A DNA stretch of 50,848 nucleotides from IMG/VR virus record IMGVR_UViG_3300045988_066011. One strand, 5' to 3'. The position numbers were made by a program, and so were the translations under genes. The DNA comes from a virus. Under the pieces are notes generated by a model. The model saw only the letters and a list, made by a program, of their open reading frames with translations, made no database searches and was not told the origin of the DNA. Below, piece by piece: positions 8,905 through 50,793 of the stretch. Position 1 is the stretch's first letter. Every line of letters starts with the position of its first letter.

Positions 8905-9498
8905 ATGGTAACAGCAACAAAGGATTATGAAGAACTTACACTTGACAGTGATGTATTTAGCAGTGCCAGGTCCAACTTTGATTTACTTATGCAGGAACTG
9001 CTTGAAAAGATGAAAACCGCTGAATCAGAAGAAGGAAGCATTACGCTGAAAGTAGACCTGACGCTGATAGAGGATTTGGTAGATAAGAGTGACGGAACGG
9101 TACGTGTAATCAGACGTCCGGTTATCAAGCATAAGGTAACAACATCGGTACCGCTTAAAAACTCACTGGATAGCAAAAATGATATCAGAATGGATTTACA
9201 GTGGGATGATGAACTGCAGAGATACGTGCTGAAGAACATCACCGGAGGAACACAGCGAAGCATTTTTGACCCGGATTTTGAAGATACACTTAAAAGCGAC
9301 GGTGATGAAGAACAGCGCGGAAACGCATTACCGGGTCCGAATAACGCTTTACCAGCCCCGGAGAGTAATGATGAGCCGATAGATACAGATTTTATCGACG
9401 TTCCGGATGAAGAGCCGGATATGGGCGCAGATGAAGCTGAGAGTGGCGATTACGATTATGATGAACCAACGAAAGAAGGCGAAGAAGATGAAGAGTAG
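8905..9498 (+). CDS. Hypothetical protein with extremely acidic C-terminus
   Basis: 197 aa, RBS aggagg. The tail is DTDFIDVPDEEPDMGADEAESGDYDYDEPTKEGEEDEE. Confidence 0.5.
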   Translation: MVTATKDYEELTLDSDVFSSARSNFDLLMQELLEKMKTAESEEGSITLKVDLTLIEDLVDKSDGTVRVIRRPVIKHKVTTSVPLKNSLDSKNDIRMDLQWDDELQRYVLKNITGGTQRSIFDPDFEDTLKSDGDEEQRGNALPGPNNALPAPESNDEPIDTDFIDVPDEEPDMGADEAESGDYDYDEPTKEGEEDEE

Positions 9499-10778: not shown

Positions 10779-11408
10779 ATGGAGAAAAGAATTGAAGTAA
10801 TTGAAAATTTCCCGGTACAGAAAATCAAAAACGGCTTTGGCAATCCAAGGAAAATCAGAAAGAAAAAAGCCGAGGAGCTTGAACAGTCACTTGAAACGCT
10901 AGGCGATTTTGGACTGATCCTGTTGGATGAGAACGACAATATTATTGCCGGCAATCAGAGGGTTGAGCTCATGAAAAGGAACAACCCGGAAGCGACAGTG
11001 CTTGTCAAAAAACTGTACGGCTATACAGAAGCCGAGCTTAGGGCAATTAATATTAAAGACAACACACATGCCGGAGACTGGGACATGAATCTTTTGTCAG
11101 AATGGACAGCAGACCTGACGTTAGACCTTGGCATAGATGCTAAGGAAAAAGGCCCGAAAAATAAAAACCTTGATGCGATGGAACATCTAAGGTATGAGAA
11201 ATACGATTATGTAATGATTGTATGCAGAAATGAGGTGGACTATCTCAATTTAATCAGGGATTTAGGCCTTGAGGGAAAGAAAACCATAGTAACACCGACC
11301 AGAAAGATTAAAGCGCGCTCCATATGGTATGACGATATCGTGATGAAGCCGGTTAGTAAAGAAAAAGAAGAGCACAAACAGGAAGGATGGGGCATAGATG
11401 GAGTATAA
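10779..11408 (+). CDS. ParB/Srx N-terminal-domain protein (stand-alone, 209 aa)
   Basis: GNPRK...LEQSLETLGDFGLILLDENDNIIAGNQR resembles the ParB-like nuclease domain found at the N-terminus of phage ParB-methylases. No methylase domain is present. Strong RBS gagggagaggag. Confidence 0.65.
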   Translation: MEKRIEVIENFPVQKIKNGFGNPRKIRKKKAEELEQSLETLGDFGLILLDENDNIIAGNQRVELMKRNNPEATVLVKKLYGYTEAELRAINIKDNTHAGDWDMNLLSEWTADLTLDLGIDAKEKGPKNKNLDAMEHLRYEKYDYVMIVCRNEVDYLNLIRDLGLEGKKTIVTPTRKIKARSIWYDDIVMKPVSKEKEEHKQEGWGIDGV

Positions 11409-12633
11409 GAAGCTGCAGAGAAAGAATTTAGCAGAAATAATGAGAAATAACTCGATGAGAGGCGTGTATTTGTTTAACGCTGACAGGTTCATACGCAATT
11501 TTACAGACCTGCAGAACGAGTTTAGACAGATATATCCTAACACCAGCATTGGATATTCGTACAAGACGAACTGGATGCCTGAGATAGGAAGTATAGTTCA
11601 CACACTTGGAGGATATGCAGAGGTTACATCTCCGATAGAAAAGGATATAGCAAGAAAAGCAGTAGGAGTATCAGAAAGAGAGATTATATATAACGGCATC
11701 ATACCTGATATATCAATGCTCGAAGTGGCACGCTTCAACGGCAAGGTTAATATAGAATCAGTAGATGCCCTCAGATTTTTCCTGAATAGTGCGGAAAAAG
11801 TTGACATAAAGGATCTGGAAGTGGGTATAAGAATACGCTACGAGGATAGCAGGTTTGGCATGAACGAAGTAGAAGCGTTGGGAGCAGCAAAAAGGCTCGG
11901 AAGAGAAGGGCACAAGCTTGCTGGAATACACTGCCATGTGGGAGGAAGCAGATCTCTCGATACCTGGAAGAAAAAAACACAGTATGTTTTAAGAATTGCA
12001 GAAAAGCTGGAAAAAGAACTTGGATATCCTTTGAAATATATTGATTTAGGCAGACATATGTATGGCCGAATGGTTCCGGAGCTGGCGGCTCAGTTCGGAG
12101 AAATCCCAACATTTAAGGATTATGCTGAAATAGTAGGAGCTGAGATGAATAACTATGCAGAGTCAAGAGGGACAATGCCGGAGCTGATTCTCGAACCGGG
12201 TACAGCACTGATAGCTGATGCAGTTACAGTTCTTGCAAGAATAGAAAATGTTAAAGAAATTCGAGACGGACTGGTTGCAACATTATCAGTGAGCTCTTAT
12301 GACTGTGGAATGATAGCTGATTACAAAGATCTGCCGATTGAAAATATCACACGCGATGCAAATCACTCCAAAACCACAATATGCGGATATACTTGCATGG
12401 AGGAGGATTTTATCAGCAGAAATGCTCATATATATCCTCGTATTGGTGACATAGTGCATATTCAGAACTGCGGAGCCTATTCGCTGTCGATGAAAGGAAA
12501 CTTTATCTACGAACCGTTACCGGTGTTAAAGGTAAACGACAGATATGAAGTGACCGGAATGGCAAAATATACTACAAAATTAAGAGATATAATAGCAAAT
12601 TACACAACAGGAGGGGTAAAATGCCTAAATTAA
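11398..12633 (+). CDS. Fold-type III PLP-dependent decarboxylase (Orn/DAP/Arg decarboxylase family)
   Basis: YSYKTN (PLP lysine), GIHCHVGG, EPGTALIADA, CGYTCMEEDF, GAYSLSM. Start overlaps the upstream stop. Confidence 0.85.
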   Translation: MEYKKLQRKNLAEIMRNNSMRGVYLFNADRFIRNFTDLQNEFRQIYPNTSIGYSYKTNWMPEIGSIVHTLGGYAEVTSPIEKDIARKAVGVSEREIIYNGIIPDISMLEVARFNGKVNIESVDALRFFLNSAEKVDIKDLEVGIRIRYEDSRFGMNEVEALGAAKRLGREGHKLAGIHCHVGGSRSLDTWKKKTQYVLRIAEKLEKELGYPLKYIDLGRHMYGRMVPELAAQFGEIPTFKDYAEIVGAEMNNYAESRGTMPELILEPGTALIADAVTVLARIENVKEIRDGLVATLSVSSYDCGMIADYKDLPIENITRDANHSKTTICGYTCMEEDFISRNAHIYPRIGDIVHIQNCGAYSLSMKGNFIYEPLPVLKVNDRYEVTGMAKYTTKLRDIIANYTTGGVKCLN

Positions 12634-13688
12634 CAGTACTAATTACAGGATGCTCGAAGCATTCAAAAGAAATTGTTGACGCCTTGACACAAAATGATGA
12701 TGGTGTCGAGGTTGATGTTGTAGCTGTAAACATGGATAAAAACAAACTGCTGAGACACGGAACCAGATACCAATATGTAGCCCCGCCGATTACGGATGAG
12801 GGCTATATTCCGTTTTTAAAGCGAGTTTGTGAAGAAACCAATACAAACATCATCATACCGTATATTACGGCTGAATTAGAGCTTATGGCAAAGCACAAGC
12901 AGGAATTTGAAGAGATGGGAGTGCATGTATCTGTCTCAGGCGAGGAATCAATCAAACTCCTGAATGATAAAATAGCTTTTGGCATGGAGTACGAGAAGTA
13001 TATGCCGAAACAGTACATTTGCGATAATCTGGTAATGGCGGAAAATTCATATTCAGAGCTGATGAGAAAAGGACGGAAGGTTTGCTGTAAGATATCCGGT
13101 AAATGCGGAGGAACAGGATTCTGCATTATAGACAACCAAAAAGCATATGACATTAATTTGTACAACAGATGCGGAATTAACCGCTATATATCATACAGCG
13201 ACTTTGAAAAGATTGTCGCTATGGGACATGAGGTGATAGTGCAGGAATATACACCCGGAATCGACTATAGCGTTTGTGTTCTTGCTGACCACGGAGAAGT
13301 GATAAGCATGGTTGGATATGTAGGATATGATATGGAATATGGAGCCGTGGTAAATGGTGAGATTGCGTCAAACCGAAAAGCGTTCGGGATTGTTCATAAA
13401 ATATGCGAAGAAACAAATCTGGACGGTAATGCATGTTTTGACTTCATCCTGAAGAAAACCGACAGGGAGAGCTCACTCGATGATTTTGATAAGGCTGAAC
13501 CGGTGCTGCTGGAGTGTAATCCAAGGATTAACGCTTCGATAGGCTTTGCCTGGAAAGCGGGGGTAAATCTTGTATACATGAGGTGCAAGCAGCTTATTGG
13601 AACTCTGGACAAAGAGAAATCAAAGAATATGGTCCCTAAATGGGGATTGAAGATGCAGAAATACTATGAAGCCGAGTATTACATTTAA
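12621..13688 (+). CDS. ATP-grasp ligase
   Basis: Rossmann-like N-terminus (VLITGCS), LNDKIAF, CCKISGKCGGTGFCII, VIVQEYTPGIDYSV, LLECNPRINAS. RBS aggagggg; overlaps the upstream stop by 13 nt. Confidence 0.8.
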   Translation: MPKLTVLITGCSKHSKEIVDALTQNDDGVEVDVVAVNMDKNKLLRHGTRYQYVAPPITDEGYIPFLKRVCEETNTNIIIPYITAELELMAKHKQEFEEMGVHVSVSGEESIKLLNDKIAFGMEYEKYMPKQYICDNLVMAENSYSELMRKGRKVCCKISGKCGGTGFCIIDNQKAYDINLYNRCGINRYISYSDFEKIVAMGHEVIVQEYTPGIDYSVCVLADHGEVISMVGYVGYDMEYGAVVNGEIASNRKAFGIVHKICEETNLDGNACFDFILKKTDRESSLDDFDKAEPVLLECNPRINASIGFAWKAGVNLVYMRCKQLIGTLDKEKSKNMVPKWGLKMQKYYEAEYYI

Positions 13689-14391
13689 TATTTACGTCAT
13701 GTCATACATGAGACCTCATGCCATTATGACAAAAAATGTATTTGAATATTGCACTTATGTGGTGAGAGAGGAAGAAGAACAGCAGTACCGAGATGCAGGA
13801 TGCGACAAATTGCTCGTTATACCACATGGAAAAGTGCATGATTTTATGTCTACGTTCTACTGGATCATTGAGAACACACCGGAAGATGTTATCTGCATAG
13901 TGGATGATGATGTAAAAGAAATGCTTTACAGGATGGATTATAAAGCCCCGATAAGGTTCACCAACGGTGAGCTGGACAGGGAGACAGCGACAGCAGAGTG
14001 CGAGAGGATAGCCCAGGTATTATATGACCTGGATTTAGGACTCGCATATGACAATCCACAGCCGGCACCATATGTATATCACCAGGAATGGCAGTTTAAG
14101 GCTATGCCGGGACATATACGCTGGGTGAATAAAAAAGCTTTCAAAGCCAAATACAACGAAAAAGACCCTGCAACCAGTGATATAGATATGGCAATGCAGG
14201 AGTTATTGCTTAACAGAGTTATCCTCCAGCCGGTTTACTATTGCACACAGGCAACGATGGACACCAACGATGGATACGCAGAGCCCCGGTCGGTTCATGA
14301 ATCAATACAATACGCCATGATGAATAAGTGGGGCCAGTACTACGATTACGACTTCAAGAAGAACACGGCTCACATTAATGTACAAAGATAA
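13666..14391 (+). CDS. Hypothetical protein with GT-A-like DxD motif (possible glycosyl or other transferase)
   Basis: VICIVDDDVKEM follows a predicted beta strand. 241 aa; overlaps the ATP-grasp stop by 23 nt. The functional call is tentative. Confidence 0.3.
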   Translation: MKPSITFNIYVMSYMRPHAIMTKNVFEYCTYVVREEEEQQYRDAGCDKLLVIPHGKVHDFMSTFYWIIENTPEDVICIVDDDVKEMLYRMDYKAPIRFTNGELDRETATAECERIAQVLYDLDLGLAYDNPQPAPYVYHQEWQFKAMPGHIRWVNKKAFKAKYNEKDPATSDIDMAMQELLLNRVILQPVYYCTQATMDTNDGYAEPRSVHESIQYAMMNKWGQYYDYDFKKNTAHINVQR

Positions 14392-14535: not shown

Positions 14536-15255
14536 ATGGGCTATAACATTAAAACACCAAACGGATATGATTTATTCGAGATGAGTTCAATGATTCAGAA
14601 GGCTATAAGAAGATGCGATATTCCACATGCAGCATACGCGGCAAACGAGCTCGGAGGAAAATTTCGCAAATACCTCTGGAAGAGATTATTAACAGTATCG
14701 GCTGAGGATTGCTACGGAATAATGACTAAGGAAATCATAGCATTACAGCAGGCAGACGAGCTGGTAAACCAGAAAGCTAAGATAGGAGAGACAAACGACC
14801 TATTCATAGCAAAGGCAGTTATCTTACTGTGCATGGCGAGGAAAAACAGGGATGCAGATTACGTAGCCTGCAATTTCATGTGGGGAGACAGAAACCTGAC
14901 GGATGAAGAATTTGACGAGTTTGTTGATTATCAGCAGGTAGAGAGTCTTAGGATGAGAGACGCAAGAGACATTCCGGGATATGTGTACGATGTCCATACA
15001 TGGAAAGGAAAGAGAGCCGGAAAGACAGAACTTGATATGTACCATGATGAGCAGGAAGCACTGGAGCCAAGGCAGATGAATTTATTTGACTACGGCGACT
15101 GGGGCGGATATTTCGACCATGAGAGAAGAAACGGCGGACTGGACAGAAAGACAGAGCAGAGATTGCCGGAGTTCCAGAGAGGCAAAGAGACAGATCCGAC
15201 ACATAACGGATGTGAGTGGACACCTAGAACGTATGAAAAGTACAGAATGAAATAA
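14536..15255 (+). CDS. Stand-alone MgsA/RarA C-terminal-domain-like protein
   Basis: YDLFEMSSMIQKAIRRCDIPHAAYAANEL...KRLLTVSAEDCYG...AKAVILLCMARKNRDADY...DIPGYVYDVHT aligns by eye to the MgsA_C pattern (YDxISAxxKSxRGSDxDAAxY...RRLxxxASEDIG...AxxYLAxAPKSNAxY...VPxHLRN). No AAA+ domain is present. Confidence 0.5.
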   Translation: MGYNIKTPNGYDLFEMSSMIQKAIRRCDIPHAAYAANELGGKFRKYLWKRLLTVSAEDCYGIMTKEIIALQQADELVNQKAKIGETNDLFIAKAVILLCMARKNRDADYVACNFMWGDRNLTDEEFDEFVDYQQVESLRMRDARDIPGYVYDVHTWKGKRAGKTELDMYHDEQEALEPRQMNLFDYGDWGGYFDHERRNGGLDRKTEQRLPEFQRGKETDPTHNGCEWTPRTYEKYRMK

Positions 15256-39966: not shown

Positions 39967-40002
39967 GCCCCGAGGATTATTGACGTCCCCGGGGCTATTT
40001 TT
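39967..40002 (+). terminator. Rho-independent terminator of the late operon
   Basis: gccccg-gg pairs with cc-ccggggc (8 bp, one bulge), followed by tattttt. Confidence 0.7.
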
Positions 40003-40278
40003 ATTGCTAAAATGTGATACATAAAATAATGCTTCTGTCAATAGAAATACTGCACAAAATATCAGAGCATTAGTTGGGTAAAATTTCAAATCGGTGTGAA
40101 AAAAGATTTTTCGATATAACTATCATCTGAGGCACAAAAGGCTGGATTAAGCAAATTACGCAGTCTCATGCAGGCGAGTATATCAAGCCGGAAACAGTAA
40201 AAGTAATTATCAACAGTGCGCTGTGGAAAATGTGTATAACTCATTATAGTGCGCTGATACACCAAGAAAAATTATTTG

Positions 40279-40395
40279 TAACGTGACGAATCACGTGACG
40301 AATTATGAAAACATCACGTGACGAATCACGTGACGAATTGCAAAAACATCACGTGACGAATCACGTGACGAATCACGAAAACGTCACGTGACGCT
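40279..40395 (+). repeat. Iteron array: seven full 12-mers TCACGTGACGAA (one starts TA, one ends CT), arranged as pairs with 35-bp phasing
   Basis: Copies at 40279, 40291, 40314, 40326, 40349, 40361 and 40384, plus a partial copy at 40373. Confidence 0.9.
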
Positions 40396-40468
40396 AATTA
40401 ACAAAATGTTATATCCCTTGAAAAATAAGGGGTTACAGCGATTTTTACATCAAGCGGAAAAGTGCTTT

Positions 40469-40502
40469 AAATGTTATCAAATCGGCTCAAAATGTTATCA
40501 AA
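40469..40502 (+). repeat. Two 13-bp direct repeats AAATGTTATCAAA spaced 21 bp apart
   Basis: 40469-40481 and 40490-40502. A partial third copy (aaaatgttat) lies at 40403-40412. Confidence 0.8.
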
Positions 40503-40518
40503 ATGCCTGCGAACACAC

Positions 40519-40573
40519 ATATATATTATTATATTTTAGTTATTAGTTATATATAATTAATATATATAATATA
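40519..40573. other. 55-bp ~96% A+T block (candidate DNA unwinding element), followed by a polypyrimidine tract at 40574-40602
   Basis: atatatattattatattttagttattagttatatataattaatatatataatata. Confidence 0.6.
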
Positions 40574-40620
40574 CTTCTTTTCTTTGGTTCTTTCTTTTCT
40601 TCAAAAAATCAAAATTCACA

Positions 40621-40649
40621 TTGCCTAAACTTGAAACGCGGTATATAAT
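40621..40649 (+). promoter_or_regulatory. Orphan promoter TTGCCT-17-TATAAT
   Basis: ttgcct aaacttgaaacgcggta tataat. No ORF follows it. Confidence 0.5.
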
Positions 40650-40655
40650 CAAATC

Positions 40656-40862
40656 ACATTGAAGGGTACCCGGTGATGAGAAGGGTACAGTCCTTCAATC
40701 CCCCATTAATTTAAAAAGCATAGTTAAGCTCTTTTTGTATTCCTAAATCACATTGGAAGCACAGAAACGAGCTAAAAGCATCCGCATATCAAATTATCTC
40801 CGTTTGCTAAATATGCGGAAAGCCCAGAAATAAGAGACATTAAGCGTGTCTCTTATTTTTTT
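40656..40862 (+). ncRNA. Candidate ~200-nt small RNA
   Basis: It has its own promoter. A 14-bp interrupted hairpin: attgaagg/gtaccc (40658-71) pairs with gggtac/ccttcaat (40683-99). A second hairpin is ccgcatat/atatgcgg. The strong terminator lies at 40829-62. No ORF longer than 12 codons. Confidence 0.35.
40829..40862 (+). terminator. Rho-independent terminator
   Basis: aataagagac pairs with gtctcttatt (10 bp), followed by T5+. Confidence 0.8.
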
Positions 40863-40884
40863 GAAAAAACTTGCAATACATCTA

Positions 40885-40913
40885 TTGACAGATTTACTTT
40901 AGTGCGCTATATT
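40885..40913 (+). promoter_or_regulatory. Promoter TTGACA-17-TATATT with AGTGCGCT element
   Basis: ttgaca gatttactttagtgcgc tatatt. The downstream aacaacaaaaca is shared with the cro promoter 5' UTR. Confidence 0.65.
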
Positions 40914-40966
40914 AAAGTCAACAACAAAACAAACACACGAACGGAAAACAAACGGAGGCAAACACC

Positions 40967-41167
40967 ATGAAATACAAAATCAGCTACAGAATTAACGAGT
41001 ACTTAATAAACAGAAATTATGAGATGCTCATCGGAGACAATGACCATAGAATAATCACCGGAGAAAATGAGGATGATGCAGTTTCAAAATTAAGAAATAT
41101 GCTCAATATCAAAGATACAGCATCAAAGATGTATGAAATAGAAATCTTGGACATTGAGGAAAGATAG
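40967..41167 (+). CDS. Hypothetical protein (66 aa)
   Basis: RBS acggagg. First gene after the promoter. Confidence 0.5.
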   Translation: MKYKISYRINEYLINRNYEMLIGDNDHRIITGENEDDAVSKLRNMLNIKDTASKMYEIEILDIEER

Positions 41168-41179
41168 GGAGAAATAAAG

Positions 41180-41407
41180 ATGGTAAAAGCAGAGCAGGAC
41201 GCAAAGAACCTTATAGCAACACTGGACATTAAAAGAATATTAGATATGTTCGAAATGACAGAGACCATGGACGATCCGTCTGTTTCAATCATGAGAGGCT
41301 GGTACATGGATGAGATAGAAAAGAGATATCCGCGAGAGTTTGATAAATGGCTTGATACAGACGATATGGCAATATCAACACTCAGAAAGCTTATTTTCGC
41401 ACAATAA
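41180..41407 (+). CDS. Hypothetical protein (75 aa)
   Basis: ORF with upstream gggag. Confidence 0.5.
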   Translation: MVKAEQDAKNLIATLDIKRILDMFEMTETMDDPSVSIMRGWYMDEIEKRYPREFDKWLDTDDMAISTLRKLIFAQ

Positions 41408-41430
41408 CAGACATTTAAGGAGGAAGAGGC

Positions 41431-41913
41431 ATGGCAGCAACAATTATTCAATTTCCGCAGACACACAGTAACGCATATTTCAACCTGAAAGGCATTCTTG
41501 AGATAGCCACAAGCAATGAAGCTATTGCCGAGTATGCCGAGATAGCTCAGGCTATTGACGAAAAAGGCGGTTTCAGACCGGGCGAGACAGATGAACTGGC
41601 TGAGTTAATCAGAACTAAGAGAATTGAAAATGCAGCACCGGTTCCAAAGCCTGCATTACAGCCAACTAAACCCGGATTGTATTGTTACACTCCGGAGATG
41701 GGAGAGGCTAAACCGGAGTGCGAAATTGAGGCATTAAGAAGCTATTACGGCAAGCACTACACCATATACACCGCACTTGAACTGAAGGGCAGAGGAATCA
41801 AAACCGATGGAGTCAAAGCTCCGGATGGGAGAAACAGATATGTTGTAACAAACAGAGCTTTTGACATGCTCTGTGAAAAATACACAATATCACAGGAACT
41901 GCTACTTGATTAA
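41431..41913 (+). CDS. Hypothetical protein (160 aa)
   Basis: RBS aaggagg. Confidence 0.5.
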   Translation: MAATIIQFPQTHSNAYFNLKGILEIATSNEAIAEYAEIAQAIDEKGGFRPGETDELAELIRTKRIENAAPVPKPALQPTKPGLYCYTPEMGEAKPECEIEALRSYYGKHYTIYTALELKGRGIKTDGVKAPDGRNRYVVTNRAFDMLCEKYTISQELLLD

Positions 41914-41957
41914 CTGACACCGGCCGGAGGCGGTATAACCTCCGGAGAAAGGAAAAA

Positions 41958-42119
41958 GTGAAAATTCAGATATTCGAGGTATACAAGAGCGTAAACAATA
42001 AAGACTGGTACCGAGTAGGAGGAACGCCGTTCCCACAACTGGCTCTGGAAGTTATGAGGAACCTGGAGAAGCACGGTATTTATGCGAAAATCGTATCAAA
42101 AATGGAAAAACCGAGCTAG
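41958..42119 (+). CDS. Hypothetical small protein (53 aa, GTG start)
   Basis: VKIQIFEVYKSVNNKDWYRVGG.... A-rich RBS-like ggagaaagg upstream. Not in the track. Confidence 0.3.
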   Translation: MKIQIFEVYKSVNNKDWYRVGGTPFPQLALEVMRNLEKHGIYAKIVSKMEKPS

Positions 42120-42130
42120 GAGGTGATTGT

Positions 42131-42415
42131 ATGTGGAATTATCCGGATGAGGATGCGTTTTGGGAAAGCAGGCGCGTGGAGATGGAAAGCATGTTTTATG
42201 GCACCGAAAATGAGCCAGAAGAAAAAAGCATATATGTCGATGAAGAGCTGGACGAATTGGAAGCGGAATATGGCTGTTCCATGGATGAACTGCCGGAAGG
42301 CGATTTGATGGACATTGTATTTAAAATCACCGGTGAGGTCCCGACAGAGGCGAGGTACAATGCAAGATTATACGAGATAGAATACATGACAGAAAGTGAG
42401 GCAGGAACATGGTAG
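42131..42415 (+). CDS. Acidic hypothetical protein (94 aa)
   Basis: RBS taggagg; D/E-rich. Confidence 0.5.
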   Translation: MWNYPDEDAFWESRRVEMESMFYGTENEPEEKSIYVDEELDELEAEYGCSMDELPEGDLMDIVFKITGEVPTEARYNARLYEIEYMTESEAGTW

Positions 42416-42801
42416 ATAAAAAGAAAAAATGGAAGGAAATACAGGGCTTTTGCAAGGAATACATAAAACTGCATGGATATCCCCCAACAGTGCGAGAGAT
42501 AGCTGATGGCGTTGATTTAAGGTCCACAGGCTCGGTAAATAGCTACATGATAGAAATGTACAACAACGGCATGTTAATATCAGAGCCGGGAAAATACGGA
42601 ATCCCACGAGCTTTTAGAATCCCCGGGATGCATATATCGTTCGATGAGGATGAAATACCGGTTGTGACCGAAAAAACAGAAAAAACAGTAACGTTCAAGT
42701 GTAGAAACTGCGGAAGAGAGCGGTGTATACCGAGCTACTGGAAACCGAAATACTGCGAGGTTTGCGGTAGTAAATTCGACTGGAAGGGAGATGTAGACTG
42801 A
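42409..42801 (+). CDS. LexA-type winged-HTH DNA-binding domain fused to a C-terminal zinc ribbon (no S24 peptidase domain)
   Basis: IQGFCKEYIKLHGYPPTVREIADGVDLRSTGSVNSYMIEMYNNGML matches the LexA_DNA_bind pattern. The C-terminus is CRNCG...CEVCG. Confidence 0.6.
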   Translation: MVDKKKKWKEIQGFCKEYIKLHGYPPTVREIADGVDLRSTGSVNSYMIEMYNNGMLISEPGKYGIPRAFRIPGMHISFDEDEIPVVTEKTEKTVTFKCRNCGRERCIPSYWKPKYCEVCGSKFDWKGDVD

Positions 42802-42986
42802 TGGCACTATATATGGCGGTCACTGCTGATAAATACGAACTGCCCCTAATGGTATCAAACAACGGCAGAGAGATGGTTGATATATACGGCATCAAATACG
42901 AGAACCTGATGTCGCAGATTAGCAAAAAGTGTTCCGGAAAGAAGCAGGGTGTAAAATTCGTTAAAGTTCAAGAGGAGGAAGAGTAA
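42801..42986 (+). CDS. Hypothetical protein (61 aa)
   Basis: ATGA overlap with the upstream gene. Confidence 0.45.
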   Translation: MALYMAVTADKYELPLMVSNNGREMVDIYGIKYENLMSQISKKCSGKKQGVKFVKVQEEEE

Positions 42987-42988
42987 TT

Positions 42989-43348
42989 ATGAGGTCTCAG
43001 AATGGCTCAGGACGCATTGAAAATGTAATCTTGAGGAAAAGATTAAAGAGAAGGACAAAAAGCCTGGAAAAGCAGAATAAGCGTATTAAACGCAGAGAGA
43101 ACGAAAACAGACGATTAAAAAAGAGACTGCTGAGAACCGGATCGGAGCTAAACGATGTGGTGAGCAGGCTTGCCACCAGCTATTGCCCGTACTGCGAAGA
43201 ATATAATATGTTCTGTTGGGAGCCGGAATGGGGATTAACATCTTATTGCCCTAAATGTGGAGCAAGAATAATGCTATGTGAGAAATGCAGCAAGAATGGA
43301 GGCAACTGCGACTACGACTTGAAAACTGATTTGTGCTCAGAAATGTAA
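42989..43348 (+). CDS. Basic coiled-coil plus zinc-ribbon hypothetical protein
   Basis: KRLKRRTKSLEKQNKRIKRRENENRRLKKR, then CPYC...CPKC...CEKC. Confidence 0.45.
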   Translation: MRSQNGSGRIENVILRKRLKRRTKSLEKQNKRIKRRENENRRLKKRLLRTGSELNDVVSRLATSYCPYCEEYNMFCWEPEWGLTSYCPKCGARIMLCEKCSKNGGNCDYDLKTDLCSEM

Positions 43349-43356
43349 TACATGTA

Positions 43357-43385
43357 TTGACGAAAGTAACGCACCGTAGTAATAT
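43357..43385 (+). promoter_or_regulatory. Promoter TTGACG-17-TAATAT
   Basis: ttgacg aaagtaacgcaccgtag taatat, directly upstream of the HTH gene. Confidence 0.5.
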
Positions 43386-43409
43386 AAAAACGCTAGGAGG
43401 TGCGTAGAT

Positions 43410-43724
43410 TTGGATGTAATGCAATATGTCAAGAGGGTTATGACAGAAGAAAAAATAACTCAATCGCAGCTGGCTTCAAAAACCGAATGGAGTAGGCAGA
43501 GAGTGTTTGCTATTCTACAAAACAATAACTCGAATTATAACTCAGTCAAAAAAATATTAAATGCGCTCGGCAGAGATTTAAAGATATCCAGGAAAGACGG
43601 AAAAGAGATTGATTTCGACGTTGATAAATTATATTCAACCATAGAAAAGACGGCACCTCTTTTTGGAAAACTTGAAAAAATATTAAACACAATGGGGTAT
43701 GAAATCGAAATCATAAAGCTATGA
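43410..43724 (+). CDS. Small HTH (XRE-like) regulator
   Basis: ITQSQLASKTEWSRQRVFAILQN is an HTH. TTG start 9 nt after AGGAGG; an in-frame ATG lies at 43419. Confidence 0.55.
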   Translation: MDVMQYVKRVMTEEKITQSQLASKTEWSRQRVFAILQNNNSNYNSVKKILNALGRDLKISRKDGKEIDFDVDKLYSTIEKTAPLFGKLEKILNTMGYEIEIIKL

Positions 43725-43853
43725 AAGCCCAGAAATAAGAGACATTAAGCGTGTCTCTTATTTTTTTGAAAAAACTTGCAATACATCTATTGACAGATTT
43801 ACTTTAGTGCGCTATATTAAAGTCAACAACAAAACAAACACACGAACGGAAAA
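43723..43853 (+). repeat. 131-bp terminator-plus-promoter cassette, copy B
   Basis: Identical to 40818..40948. Terminator at 43734-43767; promoter TTGACA at 43790-95 and TATATT at 43813-18. Confidence 0.9.
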
Positions 43854-43865
43854 GAGGAAAAAGAT

Positions 43866-44066
43866 ATGATGAACTTTAAAAACGAATGGTATGGAAGAAT
43901 AGAAGATCTGGAAGCGGATATAAAAGATGAAGGGTACGACATCCTGGAATCAAACAGAGAGTACATCACTTTTGAAGATCCTGATTCTGATGAGGATACA
44001 CAGTATGTGGCATACCTCGCAGGAACCGAAAGCACAATAGTTGTAGAAAGAATTGAGGAGGTATAA
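43866..44066 (+). CDS. Acidic hypothetical protein (66 aa)
   Basis: First ORF after promoter copy B. Confidence 0.5.
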   Translation: MMNFKNEWYGRIEDLEADIKDEGYDILESNREYITFEDPDSDEDTQYVAYLAGTESTIVVERIEEV

Positions 44067-44068
44067 CC

Positions 44069-44305
44069 ATGACAAAATTTGAAGTTGGAAAGACATACTT
44101 ACACACATTAGACACAGGAGCAGGAATGAGATTCAGAATTGACGCCAGAACTGAGAAGATGGCAACGGTAACGATTCATCCGGGCGGAGGACGCTACGAG
44201 AAAACAAGACGCAGAAGAATTTATGATTGCGGATGTATGGAGTACATCGAAATCATGGACACAATAATCGTTGATTCAGACACACCGGAAGCAAAGGAGG
44301 ACTAA
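44069..44305 (+). CDS. Hypothetical protein (78 aa)
   Basis: RBS ggagg. Confidence 0.5.
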   Translation: MTKFEVGKTYLHTLDTGAGMRFRIDARTEKMATVTIHPGGGRYEKTRRRRIYDCGCMEYIEIMDTIIVDSDTPEAKED

Positions 44306-44309
44306 AGCG

Positions 44310-44726
44310 ATGATGAAAGACGAGTTTGAGAAGCTGATAGGTAAAACAGTCGGCGACGATGATTATGACATAATCGAAAATGTTTACACATGGCATCCAA
44401 GCATCGGAAATGTAAACGGAAAACAGCAGATAGCAAGTATTTATCAGCAATTCGGAATGCCGATTATTATCAGCATGAATGAGGCAGCTGAGTTTGCAAA
44501 GAAGCTCAACGGTGAAAAACTGAAGCTGGAGGCACAGCTTAGAGATATAGCCAAAAGACTCGAGGCAGTGACAGCCGGCAATCTTGAGGAAGAGAGATGC
44601 AGGAAGGATGCCGAAGATTTATTTACCAAATGCCAAAGCCCCAGCGACTGGCAGATGGCGGTTGACTACATGGAGAGCAAATACGACAAGACATTAGTTA
44701 AAAAAGTCAGAAAGGAGTGCAAGTAA
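44310..44726 (+). CDS. Hypothetical protein (138 aa)
   Basis: RBS aaggagg before ATG 44310. Confidence 0.5.
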   Translation: MMKDEFEKLIGKTVGDDDYDIIENVYTWHPSIGNVNGKQQIASIYQQFGMPIIISMNEAAEFAKKLNGEKLKLEAQLRDIAKRLEAVTAGNLEEERCRKDAEDLFTKCQSPSDWQMAVDYMESKYDKTLVKKVRKECK

Positions 44727-44896
44727 TGGCTGACAGAACAAATCACAGGCTTAACTGCCTGATAGAAAAAGAAATTCGCATGTGGGACGGAACGGTACAC
44801 GGGGCTACCGTCCAGAACATGTACGAGAACGGATCAGATTACGAGAGTATCTGCGATGTAATGAATGTGGACTATGAGGATTATAAGGAGGATTAA
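44726..44896 (+). CDS. Hypothetical small protein (56 aa)
   Basis: The ATG overlaps the upstream TAA (taATGg). MADRTNHRLNCLIEKEIRMWDG.... Not in the track. Confidence 0.35.
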   Translation: MADRTNHRLNCLIEKEIRMWDGTVHGATVQNMYENGSDYESICDVMNVDYEDYKED

Positions 44897-44898
44897 CC

Positions 44899-45825
44899 AT
44901 GGAGAGACAGTATGTAACAATCAATGAGGAATCAGCAAGAATAGCACACAGCCTGATGTCGATGTCGGACTATCAGGAAGGAAGCAAAACAGCTTCATAC
45001 AGAGCACAGGTCAATGAGGCTTACGACCTGGCAGAGAAAGCTATTAAAAAAAGAGGTGAGAGGTTCGAGAAGAGAGCCCGGATTCTGGCAGACAGATACG
45101 CAAGGAATTTAGGCAAATATTACAACGAGGATGCAAGAATAGGCTGTATGTGTCCGTCAGTGCTGATATCAGGTGCCGCCAATTTCCCGGTCAGGAAGAA
45201 AGAAAGACAGGTTGCAGCATGGGACAAAAACCAGGAGTATTACAAGTACTGCGATAAAATCCTGAGTCAGCTCGAAAGACTCATGACATGCTCAGAGGTT
45301 ATCAAGTGTGATGACGAAAACGCTATTGAAGCCCTCAAAGAGAAAATTGAAGCCAAAGAGGAAAGCCAGGAAAGAATGAAAGAGGTAAATAAATACTGGC
45401 GCAAAAACGGCACCATGACTGGATGCGGCTTTCTGACAGATGAACAGATTGAGAAGATAAACAGCTCGATGGCGGAAGATACATGGAGATTGAGCGGGGT
45501 TCCATTCGGTTCATACCACTTACAGAACAATCTTGCAAATATAAAGCGATTAAAGGGCAGGCTTGAAGAATTACAGAACACCAAAGAGAAGGGCAGTTCT
45601 GAGGCTGATTACGGCGAGTTTAAGGTGATTGAGAACACGGACATAATGAGAATCCAGATTATGTTTGACGGAAAGCCGGAAGAAGCTGTTAGGAACGTTC
45701 TCAAGGCTAATGGTTTCCGATGGGCTCCATCTCAGGGAGCATGGCAGAGACAGCTCACATCCAATGGGAAGTATGCACTGAGAAGAGTTATCGAAGAACT
45801 GGGAGTTGAGGTGCAGGCGTCATGA
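44899..45825 (+). CDS. DUF3560-domain protein
   Basis: The C-terminus (RIQIMFDGKPEEAVRNVLKANGFRWAPSQGAWQRQLT) matches the DUF3560 pattern known from conjugative elements and phages. Confidence 0.6.
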   Translation: MERQYVTINEESARIAHSLMSMSDYQEGSKTASYRAQVNEAYDLAEKAIKKRGERFEKRARILADRYARNLGKYYNEDARIGCMCPSVLISGAANFPVRKKERQVAAWDKNQEYYKYCDKILSQLERLMTCSEVIKCDDENAIEALKEKIEAKEESQERMKEVNKYWRKNGTMTGCGFLTDEQIEKINSSMAEDTWRLSGVPFGSYHLQNNLANIKRLKGRLEELQNTKEKGSSEADYGEFKVIENTDIMRIQIMFDGKPEEAVRNVLKANGFRWAPSQGAWQRQLTSNGKYALRRVIEELGVEVQAS

Positions 45826-46025
45826 CGGTAAGAGGAGCGGCAAATGGAAGCTATTCCAGATACAACCAGAAGTACAACATAGGCTTCATCAATAGCGATG
45901 GAATGGAGGACGAAACACAGTTCGAGAGCGTGAAAACGCTCAAAGAGCTGTCGGATCTATTCCGGGACTTTTGCAAAGAGAACGGATTCAAGACAAATAC
46001 AGTTACATATGTGGAGGCAGTGTGA
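45822..46025 (+). CDS. Hypothetical protein (67 aa)
   Basis: ATGA overlap with the upstream gene. Confidence 0.45.
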   Translation: MTVRGAANGSYSRYNQKYNIGFINSDGMEDETQFESVKTLKELSDLFRDFCKENGFKTNTVTYVEAV

Positions 46026-46027
46026 TT

Positions 46028-46303
46028 ATGGCAAAGAAAATTCAGAATAAGAGATACCTGGTAAACAGAGCAGTTTACAAGGCTGTAAAAAAGTACGATC
46101 ATCAGCAGTTTGAGAACTTTTGCACCGATATTTATAAAAGTGGATGGGAGGACGGAAAGGCTTCTGTAAATGCCCTGGACGTGAAGGACATTGAAGCAGT
46201 AATCAGATCCGTAAAAGGGATCGGAGAGGCTCGGATCGGTAAGATCATGGAGGCAATCAATGAAAAATTCGATGAAAACGCCGGATCAGAAGAAACGGAG
46301 TAA
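46028..46303 (+). CDS. Hypothetical protein with HhH-like motif (91 aa)
   Basis: GGAGG lies 10 nt upstream of ATG 46028. VKGIGEARIGKI. Confidence 0.45.
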   Translation: MAKKIQNKRYLVNRAVYKAVKKYDHQQFENFCTDIYKSGWEDGKASVNALDVKDIEAVIRSVKGIGEARIGKIMEAINEKFDENAGSEETE

Positions 46304-46853
46304 ACAGTTAGGAAAAGAGATCCGGGACAGCCGGAAGAGGCATGAAGATCTTAGAGTACACGGTGGATCCGATCCCTTCTGGTCGGATGGGGTAAACATG
46401 AATTTATGCAGGAGTCACGTCATGTACTTCCGGAAGCAAGTGGAGACAGAGCTGGATCCGGAAAATTATCCGGAGGAGTATTTTCTGGAAATCCCAGCTG
46501 AGGTAAGCGTCCATTATATGGCAGATCCGGACGGGATCCGGAGCAGGTCAACAGCTGCACTGGAGGTTCTGAAAGAAAATCAGGACTTCCAGTACCTGAG
46601 AAGTAAGCTCAGCGGAGACCTGGACAAAGAAACCAGCCAGTGCATGAACCCAGTACGCTATGTCCTGGAAATGGAAGATGCGATCCGGAGGGACGATCTG
46701 GTGGTAATGCGAAGATGCCAGGATCCGGAATATTACGTCAAATATTTGAGAGAAAGTCGGAAAAAGCTGGACGAAATTCTAGGATCGCCAATTTTGGAAC
46801 CGAAGCTCCGGGAAGGGCAGCTGACAATATGGGATTTTATAGGAGGGCAATAG
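46260..46853 (+). CDS. Hypothetical protein (197 aa) translationally coupled to the MazF-like gene
   Basis: GGAGG lies 6 nt upstream. The stop is 1 nt before the next ATG. Confidence 0.45.
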   Translation: MKNSMKTPDQKKRSKQLGKEIRDSRKRHEDLRVHGGSDPFWSDGVNMNLCRSHVMYFRKQVETELDPENYPEEYFLEIPAEVSVHYMADPDGIRSRSTAALEVLKENQDFQYLRSKLSGDLDKETSQCMNPVRYVLEMEDAIRRDDLVVMRRCQDPEYYVKYLRESRKKLDEILGSPILEPKLREGQLTIWDFIGGQ

Positions 46854-46854
46854 T

Positions 46855-47435
46855 ATGCACACAGAAAATGAGTATCACAGAGGAGAGATCTTTTTTATCA
46901 ATGAGGGCGAAAGCTCCGGAAGCGAACAGGGGGGGCGAGACCTGGAATCATAGTAAGTAATGATGTTGGAAATAAACACGCTCCGATCGTGGAAGTAGTG
47001 TACCTGACATCCAGGGAGAAAAAACTGATGCCGACACACGTTAGGATCAAGAGCAGTCCGATCCCTTCCATAGCGTTATGTGAGCAGATCGAGACGGTAT
47101 ATAAAAAGCGGATCGGAAAATATCTTGCAAAAGCCACGATGGATGAAATGAAACAGATTGACAAGGCACTTGCTGTCAGTATCGGGCTTGGTGGAAATAT
47201 GAAGATGTCCGACTACGTGAGAGAGTGGGCGGAGGCGTTCAAAGAGCCGGATCCAGATCCGATCGAAGAAAAAGCGATGCAGATCCTGGAAACAGCGAAA
47301 CCAGTTTCAATCCAGATACCGGAACGCCTTTTTGACAAAGAGAGGATCAAAGAGCTGGAAAAAGATTTGATCCGAGCGGAAGCGGAGCGTGATGTATTCC
47401 AGAAACTGTATAAAGAACAGTTAGCAATCAGTTAA
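46855..47435 (+). pseudogene. PemK/MazF-family toxin gene interrupted by a frameshift in a G7 run; carries a ~75-aa C-terminal extension
   Basis: Frame 1 reads MHTENEYHRGEIFFINEGESSGSEQGG, then a stop at 46951. The next frame reads ARPGIIVSNDVGNKHAPIVEVVYLTS...MPTHVRI...CEQIETVYKKRIG...DKALAVSIGL. The G run is at 46929-46935. Confidence 0.7.
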
Positions 47436-47451
47436 ATGTGAGGTAAAGGAT

Positions 47452-47670
47452 ATGAAAAGAATCAAGCGCATGATATTTAAGCATTTTAACTGTATTCCCT
47501 GGTTCATTGTGGGAATACAGATCCTGGTAGACGGGGAAATCAGCCGCTGGCAGTATGCGATGTGCTGGATCTGCACCCTGGTAATGATCTGGATGTACGC
47601 ACCAAATAGAGCACAAACGAAGGGAGGTGGGAAAGTTGCTGACATTGACGATCGAAAAAAAGTGGTTTGA
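47452..47670 (+). CDS. Small membrane protein (72 aa)
   Basis: Two hydrophobic helices; RBS gaggtaaagga. Confidence 0.4.
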   Translation: MKRIKRMIFKHFNCIPWFIVGIQILVDGEISRWQYAMCWICTLVMIWMYAPNRAQTKGGGKVADIDDRKKVV

Positions 47671-47980
47671 TATGATCCTGAGCGGAGAAAAGACAGAGGA
47701 GTACCGAGAATTGAAACGGTACTATGATTCCAGATTCAGAAATGCTGCTATGCTGAAAAATCAGGAATATCAGGCAAGCGTTTCCGAGTTCCGGAACCTG
47801 GCTGCAACAGTGGATCAGGATATCGGAACCGTGAGGTTTCGGAATGGCTATACCACGGATGCTCCGTGTTTCCTGGCAGATTGCAAATTGACAGTCGGGG
47901 AAGGAAAACCGGAGTGGGGAGCTGTTCCTGGGACAGAGTATTATATTAAAAAAATGAAAAACGTAAGAAGGAAGGAGTAA
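47636..47980 (+). CDS. ASCH-domain protein
   Basis: LTLTIEKKWFDMILSGEKTEEYRE is a typical ASCH N-terminus. TTG start 8 nt after GGAGG; the track uses GTG 47627. Confidence 0.6.
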   Translation: MLTLTIEKKWFDMILSGEKTEEYRELKRYYDSRFRNAAMLKNQEYQASVSEFRNLAATVDQDIGTVRFRNGYTTDAPCFLADCKLTVGEGKPEWGAVPGTEYYIKKMKNVRRKE

Positions 47981-48127
47981 TGACAGAAGCCTTGGTAGAC
48001 CAAGGTTGACCGCCTAAAGGTGAAGAAAGGCGAGAACAAAAGGAATTTAATTTGCGGTGCCATGCGGCACTATGGGGAGCCGTAATTCCTTATCCACGGA
48101 CACAGAGCAATCTGTTAAGTGGTTGTC

Positions 48128-48865
48128 ATGAAAAAACTAAAAGTGTGCTGGATCTCAGCAGGAATTTCAAGTTTTATGGCAGGATATCTTGCAGGAGATG
48201 TTGATGAATGGATTTATATTGACATTGAGGATCAGCACGAAGATAGTATCAGATTTATTAAAGATTGTGAAAAAGCGATTGGGAAAGAGATTAAAATACT
48301 AAAATCAAAAGAGTACAGATGCGTAGAGGACTGCATAAAAGTGTTTGGAGGCTTCAAAGACGCCAGAAATAATTTTGCGCCTTGCACAAATTGGCTCAAA
48401 AAAAGAGTTAGGAAGGAGTGGGAATATTACAATCGAGATTATGAGTTAACGTATGTCTGGGGATTCGATTTGAAAGAAAAGAACCGGGCAGACAGGACAG
48501 TGGAATATAATCCGCAAGCAAAGCATGAGTTTCCGCTCATTGAAAAGAAACTTTCAAAAGAGGAGGTTCATGGATTGTTCGAGAGAACATTTGATTTCGC
48601 AAGACCGTGGATGTACGAACATGGTTATCCAAATAATAACTGCGTGGGTTGCGTCAAGGGCGGAATGGGGTATTGGAACCGGATCAGGAAAGATTTCCCG
48701 GAGGTTTTCGAAAGCAGAGCCAAGTTAGAACGGATGGTAGGACATTCTATGCTAAGAGATAGAAAAGGAGCTGTATACCTGGACGAACTAAGCCCTGACC
48801 GTGGAGACATGAACACAGAAGTGTTTCCAGATTGCGGAATCATGTGCTACCTGGCCCAGAAATAA
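48128..48865 (+). CDS. PAPS-reductase-like adenine nucleotide alpha-hydrolase (PP-loop) family protein
   Basis: VCWISAGISSF (degenerate SGGxDS loop), APCTNWLKKR, GFDLKEKNRADR, YEHGYPNNNCVGC. No obvious SD; an alternative GTG start lies at 48119. Confidence 0.55.
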   Translation: MKKLKVCWISAGISSFMAGYLAGDVDEWIYIDIEDQHEDSIRFIKDCEKAIGKEIKILKSKEYRCVEDCIKVFGGFKDARNNFAPCTNWLKKRVRKEWEYYNRDYELTYVWGFDLKEKNRADRTVEYNPQAKHEFPLIEKKLSKEEVHGLFERTFDFARPWMYEHGYPNNNCVGCVKGGMGYWNRIRKDFPEVFESRAKLERMVGHSMLRDRKGAVYLDELSPDRGDMNTEVFPDCGIMCYLAQK

Positions 48866-50143: not shown

Positions 50144-50180
50144 TCTCAGTCAGGATGCACCGGAAAGGAAAGAAAAGAAA

Positions 50181-50747: not shown

Positions 50748-50793
50748 AACACCAACAAATGTTAGAAATGGTGGTACACCCGTAATCATACGG

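Follow-up and report, generated by a model that had tools for sequence, protein, structure and literature searches.

The DNA considered here (the window) is a stretch of 50,848 nucleotides from the virus record IMGVR_UViG_3300045988_066011, a temperate siphovirus-like prophage whose open reading frames (ORFs) were read from the sequence and compared with Pfam, PHROG, NCBIfam, the PDB and BFVD. Between its replication/regulator genes and its packaging genes lies a cassette of five genes, whose products may together modify phage DNA with a tailored sugar.

ORF1, 10779-11408, + strand, 209 amino acids: ParB/Srx-like protein
ORF2, 11398-12633, + strand, 411 amino acids: fold-type III decarboxylase dependent on pyridoxal phosphate (PLP)
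ORF3, 12621-13688, + strand, 355 amino acids: ATP-grasp ligase
ORF4, 13666-14391, + strand, 241 amino acids: glycosyltransferase (GT) of GT-A fold
ORF5, 14536-15255, + strand, 239 amino acids: all-helical protein resembling the C-terminal part of MgsA/RarA

The first four genes had been recognised in a preliminary description of this DNA as a translationally coupled operon. They lie on the + strand exactly where it placed them, with stop-to-start overlaps of 11, 13 and 23 nucleotides, and identical overlaps are found in independent gene calls of one related contig. The motifs quoted at the time, GNPRK and IIAGNQR in ORF1 and VDDDV in ORF4, can be read in the translations. Good Shine-Dalgarno sequences precede ORF1, ORF2 and ORF3, a weak one precedes ORF4 and a strong one ORF5, which follows ORF4 after a spacing of 144 nucleotides. 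Scans for promoters and terminators gave results no better than chance. All five products are soluble and have neither a signal peptide nor a transmembrane segment.

That these genes belong together came from the comparison of about 200 related loci by protein clustering and by tblastn (independent of gene calling). Sampling from the side of the GT family gave 80 viral loci, 34 genome loci and several contigs, and 86 of the GT loci had adequate flanks. ORF5 is present in all 86, an ORF1-type gene in 85, an ORF3-type gene in 77 and an ORF2-type gene in 76, while the other companions are a GNAT gene (53 loci), UDP-galactopyranose mutase (32), a PIG-L de-N-acetylase (11), WbqC (5) and a PglD-like acyltransferase (3). 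The four-gene unit of the preliminary description was thus too small, as the overlooked ORF5 is an obligate companion. When dereplicated at 80% identity, the sample contains 31 GT lineages with at least ten gene orders, and the trio of GT, ParB-like gene and ORF5 is kept in all of them. The phage backbones that carry the cassette are unrelated, with different terminases, portals and capsids, and in all GT lineages the cassette stands just 5' of terminase genes, themselves of several unrelated types, so that the slot before the packaging genes noted for the window is a fixed one. Because the genes recur together in 31 GT lineages on unrelated backbones, their clustering is non-random, and far beyond chance.

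Sampling from the side of ORF5 added 47 loci with flanks. The ParB-like gene and the GT are directly visible in 39 of them, and the other 8, apparently 'ORF5-only', have a divergent ParB_N-like gene and a GT-like gene with a DDD motif immediately upstream (e.g. loci L184 and L188). In none of some 130 adequately flanked loci do the ParB-like gene and ORF5 stand together with no GT-like neighbour. One variant from this sampling has the GT beside a CapE-like UDP-GlcNAc 4,6-dehydratase (2e-115) and a DegT-family aminotransferase (5e-79), and several of the gene orders place the ParB-like gene amid sugar enzymes. The search for the same synteny in other phages, which the preliminary description had called for, has therefore revealed a recurrent association whose constant core is the GT, the ParB-like protein and ORF5, and not the ATP-grasp/decarboxylase pair. 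The pair is an exchangeable tailoring module, found in about 90% of the first locus sample and replaced by other sugar enzymes elsewhere. Since the GT is constant and the pair is swapped, any adduct should be based on a glycan. The earlier proposal of an amino-acid or polyamine adduct directly on the base is accordingly revised to one in which the amino acid or amine is carried by a sugar.

Phages with an internally duplicated ORF5 (about 367 amino acids) bear fragmented or decayed GT, ATP-grasp and decarboxylase genes (L084, 6760-7845; L126, 3657-6500). The cassette may really have decayed in these phages, or reassigned stop codons may have disrupted the gene calls. That L084 carries ORF5 without the module was rejected, as tblastn finds decayed decarboxylase and GT fragments there. 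An unassigned gene of another locus (L074 c430) was considered as a divergent ATP-grasp protein and is unsupported as such (E 0.4).

The GT, ORF4, was modelled with AlphaFold2 on 36 homologues. The model has a GT-A fold (pLDDT 91, pTM 0.88), in line with the GT-A-like character first suggested by its VDDDV motif. Its top matches in BFVD are phage proteins with a TAGT (TET-associated glycosyltransferase) domain and the beta-glucosyl-HMC-alpha-glucosyltransferase (HMC, hydroxymethylcytosine), with template-modelling (TM) scores of 0.66-0.78 and E values of 1e-9 to 1e-14, and the match spans all of ORF4. Against the PDB, the model finds only generic GT-A enzymes with TM scores of about 0.5. Residues DDD80-82, SDxD171-174 and QE178-179 are invariant in the family. 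PHROG 842, which ORF4 matches at 7e-5, and Pfam TAGT (PF20691) are the sole sequence families matched by ORF4 or its relatives; for the latter, two relatives exceed the threshold of 27.5 bits, P0038 with 29.9 and P0096 with 29.7, and two fall short of it, P0010 with 23.7 and P0064 with 18.9. As judged from the model, ORF4 is probably a nucleotide-sugar transferase of the phage TAGT structural clade, and no cellular GT-A enzyme comes nearly as close to the model as the phage DNA glycosyltransferases do. The TAGT family includes the enzyme of T6-like phages that adds a second glucose onto glucosyl-5-hydroxymethylcytosine. ORF4 shares with the T2/T6 beta-glucosyl-HMC-alpha-glucosyltransferase and with TAGT the GT-A subfold (TM about 0.7) and a DxD-type motif; sequence identity to them is only about 10-19%, and the T-even acceptor, glucosyl-5-hydroxymethylcytosine, could not be made here by any known route.

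In ORF1, an N-terminal nucleotide-binding-type domain (about residues 1-110, containing GNPRK and AGNQR) is joined through a variable linker to a C-terminal domain (about residues 134-185) that is conserved. In PHROG it matches the ParB-like PHROG 620 at 5e-20 and PHROG 498, the N-terminus of a DNA methyltransferase, at 6e-18. Since ORF1 has no match in Pfam, and neither it nor its family profile found one in the PDB, its membership of the ParB family was shown via its relatives. An exhaustive HMMER search collected about 1,500 representative relatives, and among 67 distant ones Pfam ParB_N is present in 19 (best 2e-10) and a fusion to N6_N4_Mtase in 5; L123 also has a weak ParB_N match. NPRK and AGNQR are invariant or nearly so across the family. 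By its N-terminal domain and its NPR...G-x-x-R motifs, ORF1 is a member of the ParB/Srx superfamily, as had been proposed. Its relatives bear ParB_N domains or methylase fusions, and its own domain is accordingly the ParB/Srx module with which phages equip DNA-modifying enzymes. Of the features of a partition-type ParB, the helix-turn-helix (HTH) DNA-binding domain is missing from ORF1, and no ParA was detected. The phosphotransfer role once suggested for this protein found no support here.

ORF5 is the least familiar member of the core. It matches PHROG 16866 at 1e-42 and Pfam MgsA_C weakly (15.6 bits, cut-off 27), and foldseek returned 2r9g, 3bge and 3pvs only, all of them C-terminal fragments of MgsA. 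The family alignment shows many invariant polar residues. ORF5 is homologous to the C-terminal domain that MgsA/RarA replication-associated ATPases carry; of a full MgsA/RarA protein it has the MgsA_C-like helical domain alone, with no AAA+ module and no P-loop. Because the family is without an ATPase module, the database label 'AAA-ATPase' on its homologues in Microbacterium phages is misleading.

The exchangeable pair is better charted. ORF2 matches Pfam Orn_Arg_deC_N at 2e-15 with 57.3 bits (cut-off 23.4), and its C-terminal domain scores 21.7 bits (cut-off 23). Its nearest solved relatives are N-citrylornithine decarboxylase (7kh2, 5e-23), diaminopimelate (DAP) decarboxylases and BtrK. The preliminary description credited it with every hallmark of fold-type III decarboxylases. 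This stands for the PLP lysine (YSYK56TN), SRFG, EPG, C-x-E-x-D and GAY, which are kept in 43 family members, and fails for the glycine-rich phosphate loop, which is degenerate (DLGRHMYG). Against the orthologue cut-offs of NCBIfam, ORF2 reached 103 bits of 298 for lysA (1e-29) and 82 of 500 for FslC (3e-23); scores so far under the lysA and FslC cut-offs rule it out as an orthologue of LysA, FslC or BtrK, and it represents a separate subfamily of fold-type III PLP decarboxylases. ORF3, likewise assigned to the ATP-grasp ligases from the outset, exceeds the cut-offs of three Pfam models (PylC-like_N 2e-12, ATPgrasp_Ter 6e-11, ATP-grasp_3 3e-8) and matches the NCBIfam 'carbamoyl-phosphate-synthase-like' family PRK12767 at 1e-24, and its ATP/Mg motifs K...GG.G and E.NPR are conserved. 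It is a predicted amide (or ester) ligase of the PRK12767 / PylC-like / ATPgrasp_Ter type. The idea of a ligation followed by decarboxylation is supported, as the nearest characterised relatives of ORF2 decarboxylate amino acids conjugated through their side chains.

Genome matches of the cassette in metagenome-assembled genomes (MAGs) and isolates come from Oscillospiraceae, Lachnospiraceae, Faecalibacterium, Ruminococcus, Bacteroides, Parabacteroides, Prevotella, Muribaculaceae and one Treponema. In these genome matches the GT is still 46-69% identical. Across hosts from Bacillota, Bacteroidota and a Treponema MAG it is 50-69% identical, and such closeness over phyla points to a universal acceptor. 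Among 50,697 deposited (cultured) phages, a nucleotide search and tblastn of ORF3 and ORF4 found nothing and ORF2 gave distant decarboxylases only, so that the ORF4 family proper has no member there. Homologues of ORF5 and ORF1 do occur in cultured, lytic Cluster EC Microbacterium phages, such as Quhwah, Paschalis and Smarties. The order in phage Smarties is a sigma factor, the ParB-like gp92, the glycosyltransferase gp93, the UDP-glucose-dehydrogenase-like gp94 and the ORF5 homologue gp95; the block (L202, 49945-52788) lies at the genome end beside the terminase, in a circularly permuted genome. Smarties gp95 is 44% identical to ORF5 (hhalign 100%, E 2e-43) and gp92 is homologous to ORF1 over the full length (hhalign 97.7%, E 2e-12). 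gp93 is equal in size to members of the ORF4 family and aligns DDD to DDD, at a level that is not significant (E 0.027). About 60 other records of Cluster EC and Arthrobacter phages also carry ParB-like, GT, UDP-glucose-dehydrogenase-like and ORF5 homologue genes. Just upstream of the Smarties block, gp90 (425 amino acids) has no detectable relatives in the PDB.

The closest published counterparts are the phage clusters for post-replicative DNA hypermodification, in which a TET/JBP-type dioxygenase (5mYOX) makes 5-hydroxymethylcytosine (5hmC) or 5-hydroxymethyluracil (5hmU), as the substrate of glycosylating GT-A or GT-B enzymes (Pyle et al., bioRxiv 10.1101/2023.12.21.572611; O'Toole et al., bioRxiv 10.1101/2025.08.14.668559 and PMC13229309; Burke et al., PMC8256090). 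Beside phage 5mYOX genes one most often finds a GT (31%), a ParB (27%) and a terminase (19%). The published ParB-like proteins activate phage thymine dioxygenases, and they combine a nucleotide-binding and a C-terminal domain with no DNA-binding domain; the architecture of ORF1, with its variable linker and no HTH, is the same. Like the 5mYOX clusters, our cassette sets an HTH-less ParB/Srx-like protein beside modifying enzymes, has a TAGT-clade GT-A enzyme, lies near the terminase and recruits GNAT and sugar-modifying accessories. A precedent for the latter is the phage-encoded UDP-galactopyranose mutase that has been proposed to feed DNA glycosylation. Unlike those clusters, the cassette has no 5mYOX, C5-methyltransferase or thymidylate-synthase (ThyS) homologue. 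Moreover, an obligate MgsA-C-like protein and the ATP-grasp/fold-III decarboxylase pair are not reported in the 5mYOX-cluster papers, where the words 'ATP-grasp' and 'decarboxylase' are absent from the text. We found no paper linking ATP-grasp, fold-III decarboxylase, WbqC, an MgsA-C-like protein or this gene set to phage DNA modification. The novelty claimed for the system thus holds for the lack of a 5mYOX or ThyS enzyme and for the ATP-grasp/PLP-decarboxylase tailoring, and does not extend to the pairing of a ParB-like protein with a TAGT-type GT, which has published precedent. The cassette is best placed with the known ParB/GT hypermodification clusters, as a form set apart by its missing 5mYOX/ThyS, its obligate MgsA-C-like partner and its ATP-grasp/PLP-decarboxylase branch.

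More distant systems resemble single steps. In FslA/FslC (rhizoferrin) and BtrJ/BtrK (butirosin) a fold-III decarboxylase acts on a side-chain-conjugated amino acid, and the butirosin ligase is an ATP-grasp enzyme. Unlike in these pathways, ORF3 belongs to another ATP-grasp subfamily, there is no carrier protein or synthetase for NRPS-independent siderophores (NIS), and the genes stand next to a GT and a ParB-like gene in the late operon of a phage. By analogy, the cassette could also be likened to thymidine hypermodification (PMC8989533), in which an amino acid on a DNA substituent is trimmed to an amine by a PLP enzyme after replication. That pathway requires 5-hydroxymethyldeoxyuridine from a deoxyuridine monophosphate (dUMP) hydroxymethylase, the P-loop kinase 5-HMUDK and the transferase AADT (aGPT-Pplase), none of which was found in the window; it further has a PLP decarboxylase or radical SAM enzyme, involves no sugar, and its decarboxylase families differ from that of ORF2. 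In DpdA/DpdB 7-deazaguanine modification (PMC10164549) and in DndB, a ParB-like NTPase is the obligatory helper of a DNA-modifying transferase. The DpdA/DpdB chemistry is unrelated (base exchange with preQ0), and no DpdA/TGT homologue was found in the window. In mycothiol/bacillithiol synthesis, the enzymes act in the order GT, PIG-L-family deacetylase, ATP-dependent amino-acid ligase and GNAT. Cassette variants with PIG-L, ATP-grasp or WbqC, and GNAT would mirror these steps (glycosylate, de-N-acetylate, aminoacylate, N-acetylate). The mycothiol/bacillithiol enzymes are a GT-B and a Cys-tRNA-synthetase-like ligase as opposed to the GT-A and ATP-grasp enzymes here, and the version in the window is without deacetylase and GNAT.

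We propose, with a probability of roughly one half, that the cassette, with the help of its ParB-like protein, attaches a glycan to phage DNA once replication is over, and that a decarboxylated amino acid tailors this glycan. The cassette would be expressed late, and the phage would modify its own DNA after replication, just ahead of packaging, with a tailored sugar. ORF1 could serve the modifying enzyme as an activator or clamp that associates with DNA, the way the published ParB-like proteins serve thymine dioxygenases, and ORF5 is perhaps an adaptor working together with it. ORF4, for which the fold and the catalytic motifs are established, would move a sugar from a nucleotide-sugar donor to an acceptor that we infer to be linked to a nucleobase. 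By its family, ORF3 would link an amino acid, likely of the ornithine/lysine/DAP or glutamate type, to this sugar through a side-chain amide or ester, and the sugar would likely bear a carboxylate or an amine. ORF2, by analogy with FslC and BtrK, could then strip the free alpha-carboxylate and leave an amine-terminated, cationic appendage. Other phages would combine the same core with differing donor-making or tailoring enzymes (Glf, PIG-L, WbqC, PglD-like, GNAT, CapE/DegT, UDP-glucose-dehydrogenase-like) to make diverse glycans. We speculate that the UDP-glucose-dehydrogenase-like gene of the Microbacterium version makes a uronic-acid sugar with a carboxylate that can be amidated, and that the variants containing PIG-L use an amino sugar instead. 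Diversifying selection exerted on a surface by restriction or type IV systems would be expected to produce this pattern, a constant core around which donor and tailoring enzymes are swapped. The earlier idea of an undescribed candidate for nucleic-acid modification is supported by these comparisons, with DNA as the presumed acceptor.

Gene content beside the cassette fits its site being a 'DNA-modification slot'. A few trio-bearing phages have genes resembling C5-cytosine methyltransferases (motif I DLFCGAGG, motif IV variant ECTNFS) or DUF4942/N6-methylases within a few kb (L062, 4397-6229; L184, 11955-13466; upstream genes of L086, L087 and L125), and ArdA adjoins the cassette in L123. No dioxygenase accompanies these neighbours.

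Several observations weigh against a DNA acceptor. To our knowledge, all characterised phage DNA glycosylation begins with a TET/JBP dioxygenase or a thymidylate-synthase homologue, which provides the 5hmC, 5hmU or 5-hydroxycytosine (5hoC) to be glycosylated. Pfam and PHROG scans, which took in almost every ORF of at least 140 amino acids in the window, from its early and structural regions to the right arm, detected no TET/JBP (5mYOX) enzyme, thymidylate-synthase homologue or C5-methyltransferase, and likewise no DpdA, kinase, AADT or DNA methyltransferase, which upholds the absences (hydroxymethylase, TET, DpdA, methyltransferase) listed in the preliminary description. Among the Pfam-annotated related loci there is no TET/5mYOX, thymidylate-synthase homologue or kinase/AADT, and the annotation of Smarties contains no 5mYOX, thymidylate-synthase homologue, C5-methyltransferase or kinase/AADT. 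Because no starter enzyme is detectable, the hydroxyl acceptor of all characterised DNA glycosyltransferases is missing. ORF4 itself reaches no Pfam threshold and has no match at E<=0.1, the TAGT match of its relatives is confined to the N-terminal half (profile positions 2-100 of 205), and GT-A folds serve many kinds of acceptor. The products of ORF1-ORF5 are all acidic (pI 5.2-6.7) and have no recognisable DNA-binding domain, and accessory enzymes of these kinds typically belong to pathways for polysaccharides or small molecules.

Pfam can miss 5mYOX enzymes that have diverged very far, as noted in the literature on phage 5mYOX clusters. No conserved unannotated candidate recurring beside the trio was found among the related loci. 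Within the window, the ORF of 197 amino acids at 8905-9498 was a candidate for a hidden dioxygenase, hydroxymethylase or methyltransferase but was rejected, as it has an acidic tail and no HxD...H motif. That strictly anaerobic hosts could explain the absence of the oxygen-dependent 5mYOX is weakened by the aerobic Microbacterium phages, which have the trio and are also without an annotated 5mYOX.

A tentative, somewhat unlikely variant of the DNA-directed scheme is that the trio of ParB-like protein, GT and ORF5 glycosylates a canonical base or a native group of DNA (exocyclic amine, phosphate) directly, and that the sugar is then extended by the ATP-grasp/PLP pair. Such a reaction would involve no prior hydroxymethylation or hydroxylation, and hence would need neither oxygen nor folate.

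We regard as unlikely the alternative of a free metabolite, already raised in the preliminary description. The cassette would then make a small molecule while the phage grows lytically (a polyamine glycoside, for instance, or the amide of an amino sugar or uronic acid), along the lines of mycothiol/bacillithiol or butirosin synthesis, to serve as a counter-defence metabolite, signal or protectant, the ParB/Srx protein then being a small-molecule kinase or NTPase that does not act on DNA. The combination of GT, PIG-L, ATP-dependent ligase and GNAT does reproduce the order of steps in mycothiol/bacillithiol synthesis, ATP-grasp and fold-III decarboxylase pairs work on small conjugates (FslC, BtrK), and the ParB/Srx fold includes phosphotransferases such as sulfiredoxin and an archaeal serine kinase. 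The missing acceptor-generating enzyme and the soluble, acidic nature of all the proteins would also suit a metabolite. However, the relatives of ORF1 are ParB_N proteins and DNA methyltransferase fusions and not kinases, the ORF4 model is nearest specifically to DNA glycosyltransferases, and ORF5 is related to a replication-associated domain. The chemistry varies greatly among close phages, which is easier to understand for a surface recognised by an enemy than for a single metabolite, and the position before the terminase is fixed.

Quite unlikely, in our view, is a GT that glycosylates a protein or an envelope polymer, with the other enzymes tailoring the glycan. Its target might be virion proteins, as happens in mycobacteriophages, or some host factor, or, on the model of the prophage enzyme TarP, a precursor of teichoic acid or polysaccharide. 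Phage virion glycosylation is known, published phage DNA GT-A enzymes resemble TarP, and Glf, PglD-like, WbqC, CapE/DegT, UDP-glucose-dehydrogenase-like and PRK12767-type ATP-grasp enzymes are typical of surface-polysaccharide loci. Against this, the same GT family, at 50-69% identity, is found in phages of Gram-positive bacteria, Gram-negative bacteria and spirochaetes with unrelated capsid and tail modules, among which no common acceptor is apparent, and the cassette encodes no membrane protein, flippase or signal peptide. Envelope or virion acceptors are argued against by this cross-phylum spread, by the soluble proteins and by the unrelated virion modules. In addition, the cassette lies in a lytic operon beside the terminase and not in a lysogenic-conversion locus near the integrase, and the obligate ParB-like and MgsA-C-like partners would be left unexplained.

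Lastly, it is improbable that the ParB-like gene and ORF5 are a packaging or regulatory pair and the sugar genes unrelated inserted cargo with no single functional system: between gut and Microbacterium phages ORF5 (E 2e-43) and the ParB-like protein (2e-12) are indeed far better conserved than the GT (0.027, not significant), ParB-like genes are common beside phage terminase genes and 144 nucleotides separate ORF4 from ORF5, but the apparent exceptions to the rule that the ParB-like/ORF5 pair has a GT-like neighbour are a decayed (L084) and two divergent trios (L184, L188) in some 130 loci, and the ParB-like gene is both embedded among sugar enzymes and part of the stop-to-start overlaps of ORF1-ORF4.

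The remaining genes of the window place the cassette in its setting. The early region holds a serine integrase, repressors, RecT, an exonuclease, a replication initiator, a DnaC-like loader and RusA, after which the late operon begins. Immediately upstream of the cassette is a gene of PHROG 1558, which adjoins the ParB-like gene in 17 loci and whose C-terminus resembles region 4 of sigma factors by eye; Smarties has an annotated RNA-polymerase sigma factor in the equivalent position, directly before its ParB-like gene. A sigma-dependent late operon may begin with the cassette. Between RusA and the late regulator lies the gene at 8905-9498, conserved in 12 related loci; its product has no family match and a C-terminal third rich in D and E, and could be a protein interacting with single-stranded DNA-binding protein, or a DNA mimic. 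An ORF in the head-morphogenesis region has a Tad2-like (Thoeris anti-defence 2) domain (Pfam 6e-14), which suggests that the prophage also encodes a predicted Thoeris counter-defence protein. After the endolysin there is a low-GC break at about 40-41 kb, and the segment from about 40000 to 50848 looks like a second mobile element or satellite. Phage PAPS-reductase-like proteins are suspected nucleic-acid modifiers; a gene similar to the one in this segment also lies near the trio in L188.

70-1800: serine integrase
8905-9498, + strand: acidic-tailed protein, 197 amino acids
9854-10444, + strand: PHROG 1558 protein, C-terminus sigma-like by eye, 196 amino acids
20578-21033, + strand: Tad2-like protein, 151 amino acids
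38890-39903: endolysin
42409-42801: LexA-like repressor
44899-45825: primase (PHROG 19458 at 2e-84)
46989-47435: PemK/MazF-like fragment
48119-48865: PAPS-reductase-like PP-loop protein (PHROG 424 at 4e-30)
about 40000-50848, within the segment: YopX-like protein

The cassette provides a context for two orphan families, the MgsA-C-like proteins of PHROG 16866 and the HTH-less phage ParBs. In the published work on 5mYOX clusters, 65% of the GT-containing contigs have no 5mYOX or ThyS nearby, and the same authors call these less obviously related to DNA. If the cassette acts on DNA, either its acceptor chemistry would be new or DNA would be activated in a manner that has gone unrecognised, and it would give an ATP-grasp ligase and a fold-III decarboxylase their first role in DNA hypermodification. 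Direct glycosylation, if true, would be chemistry of a categorically new kind and would open hypermodification at a new point, one widespread among the temperate phages that infect anaerobic gut bacteria; its product, an aminoacyl- or polyamine-type glycan, would be a DNA adduct of a new class. The presence of a distant trio in cultured Cluster EC Microbacterium phages makes the question directly testable. A DNA-directed function would have consequences for sequencing bias, for the evasion of restriction and CRISPR, and for the engineering of gut phages.

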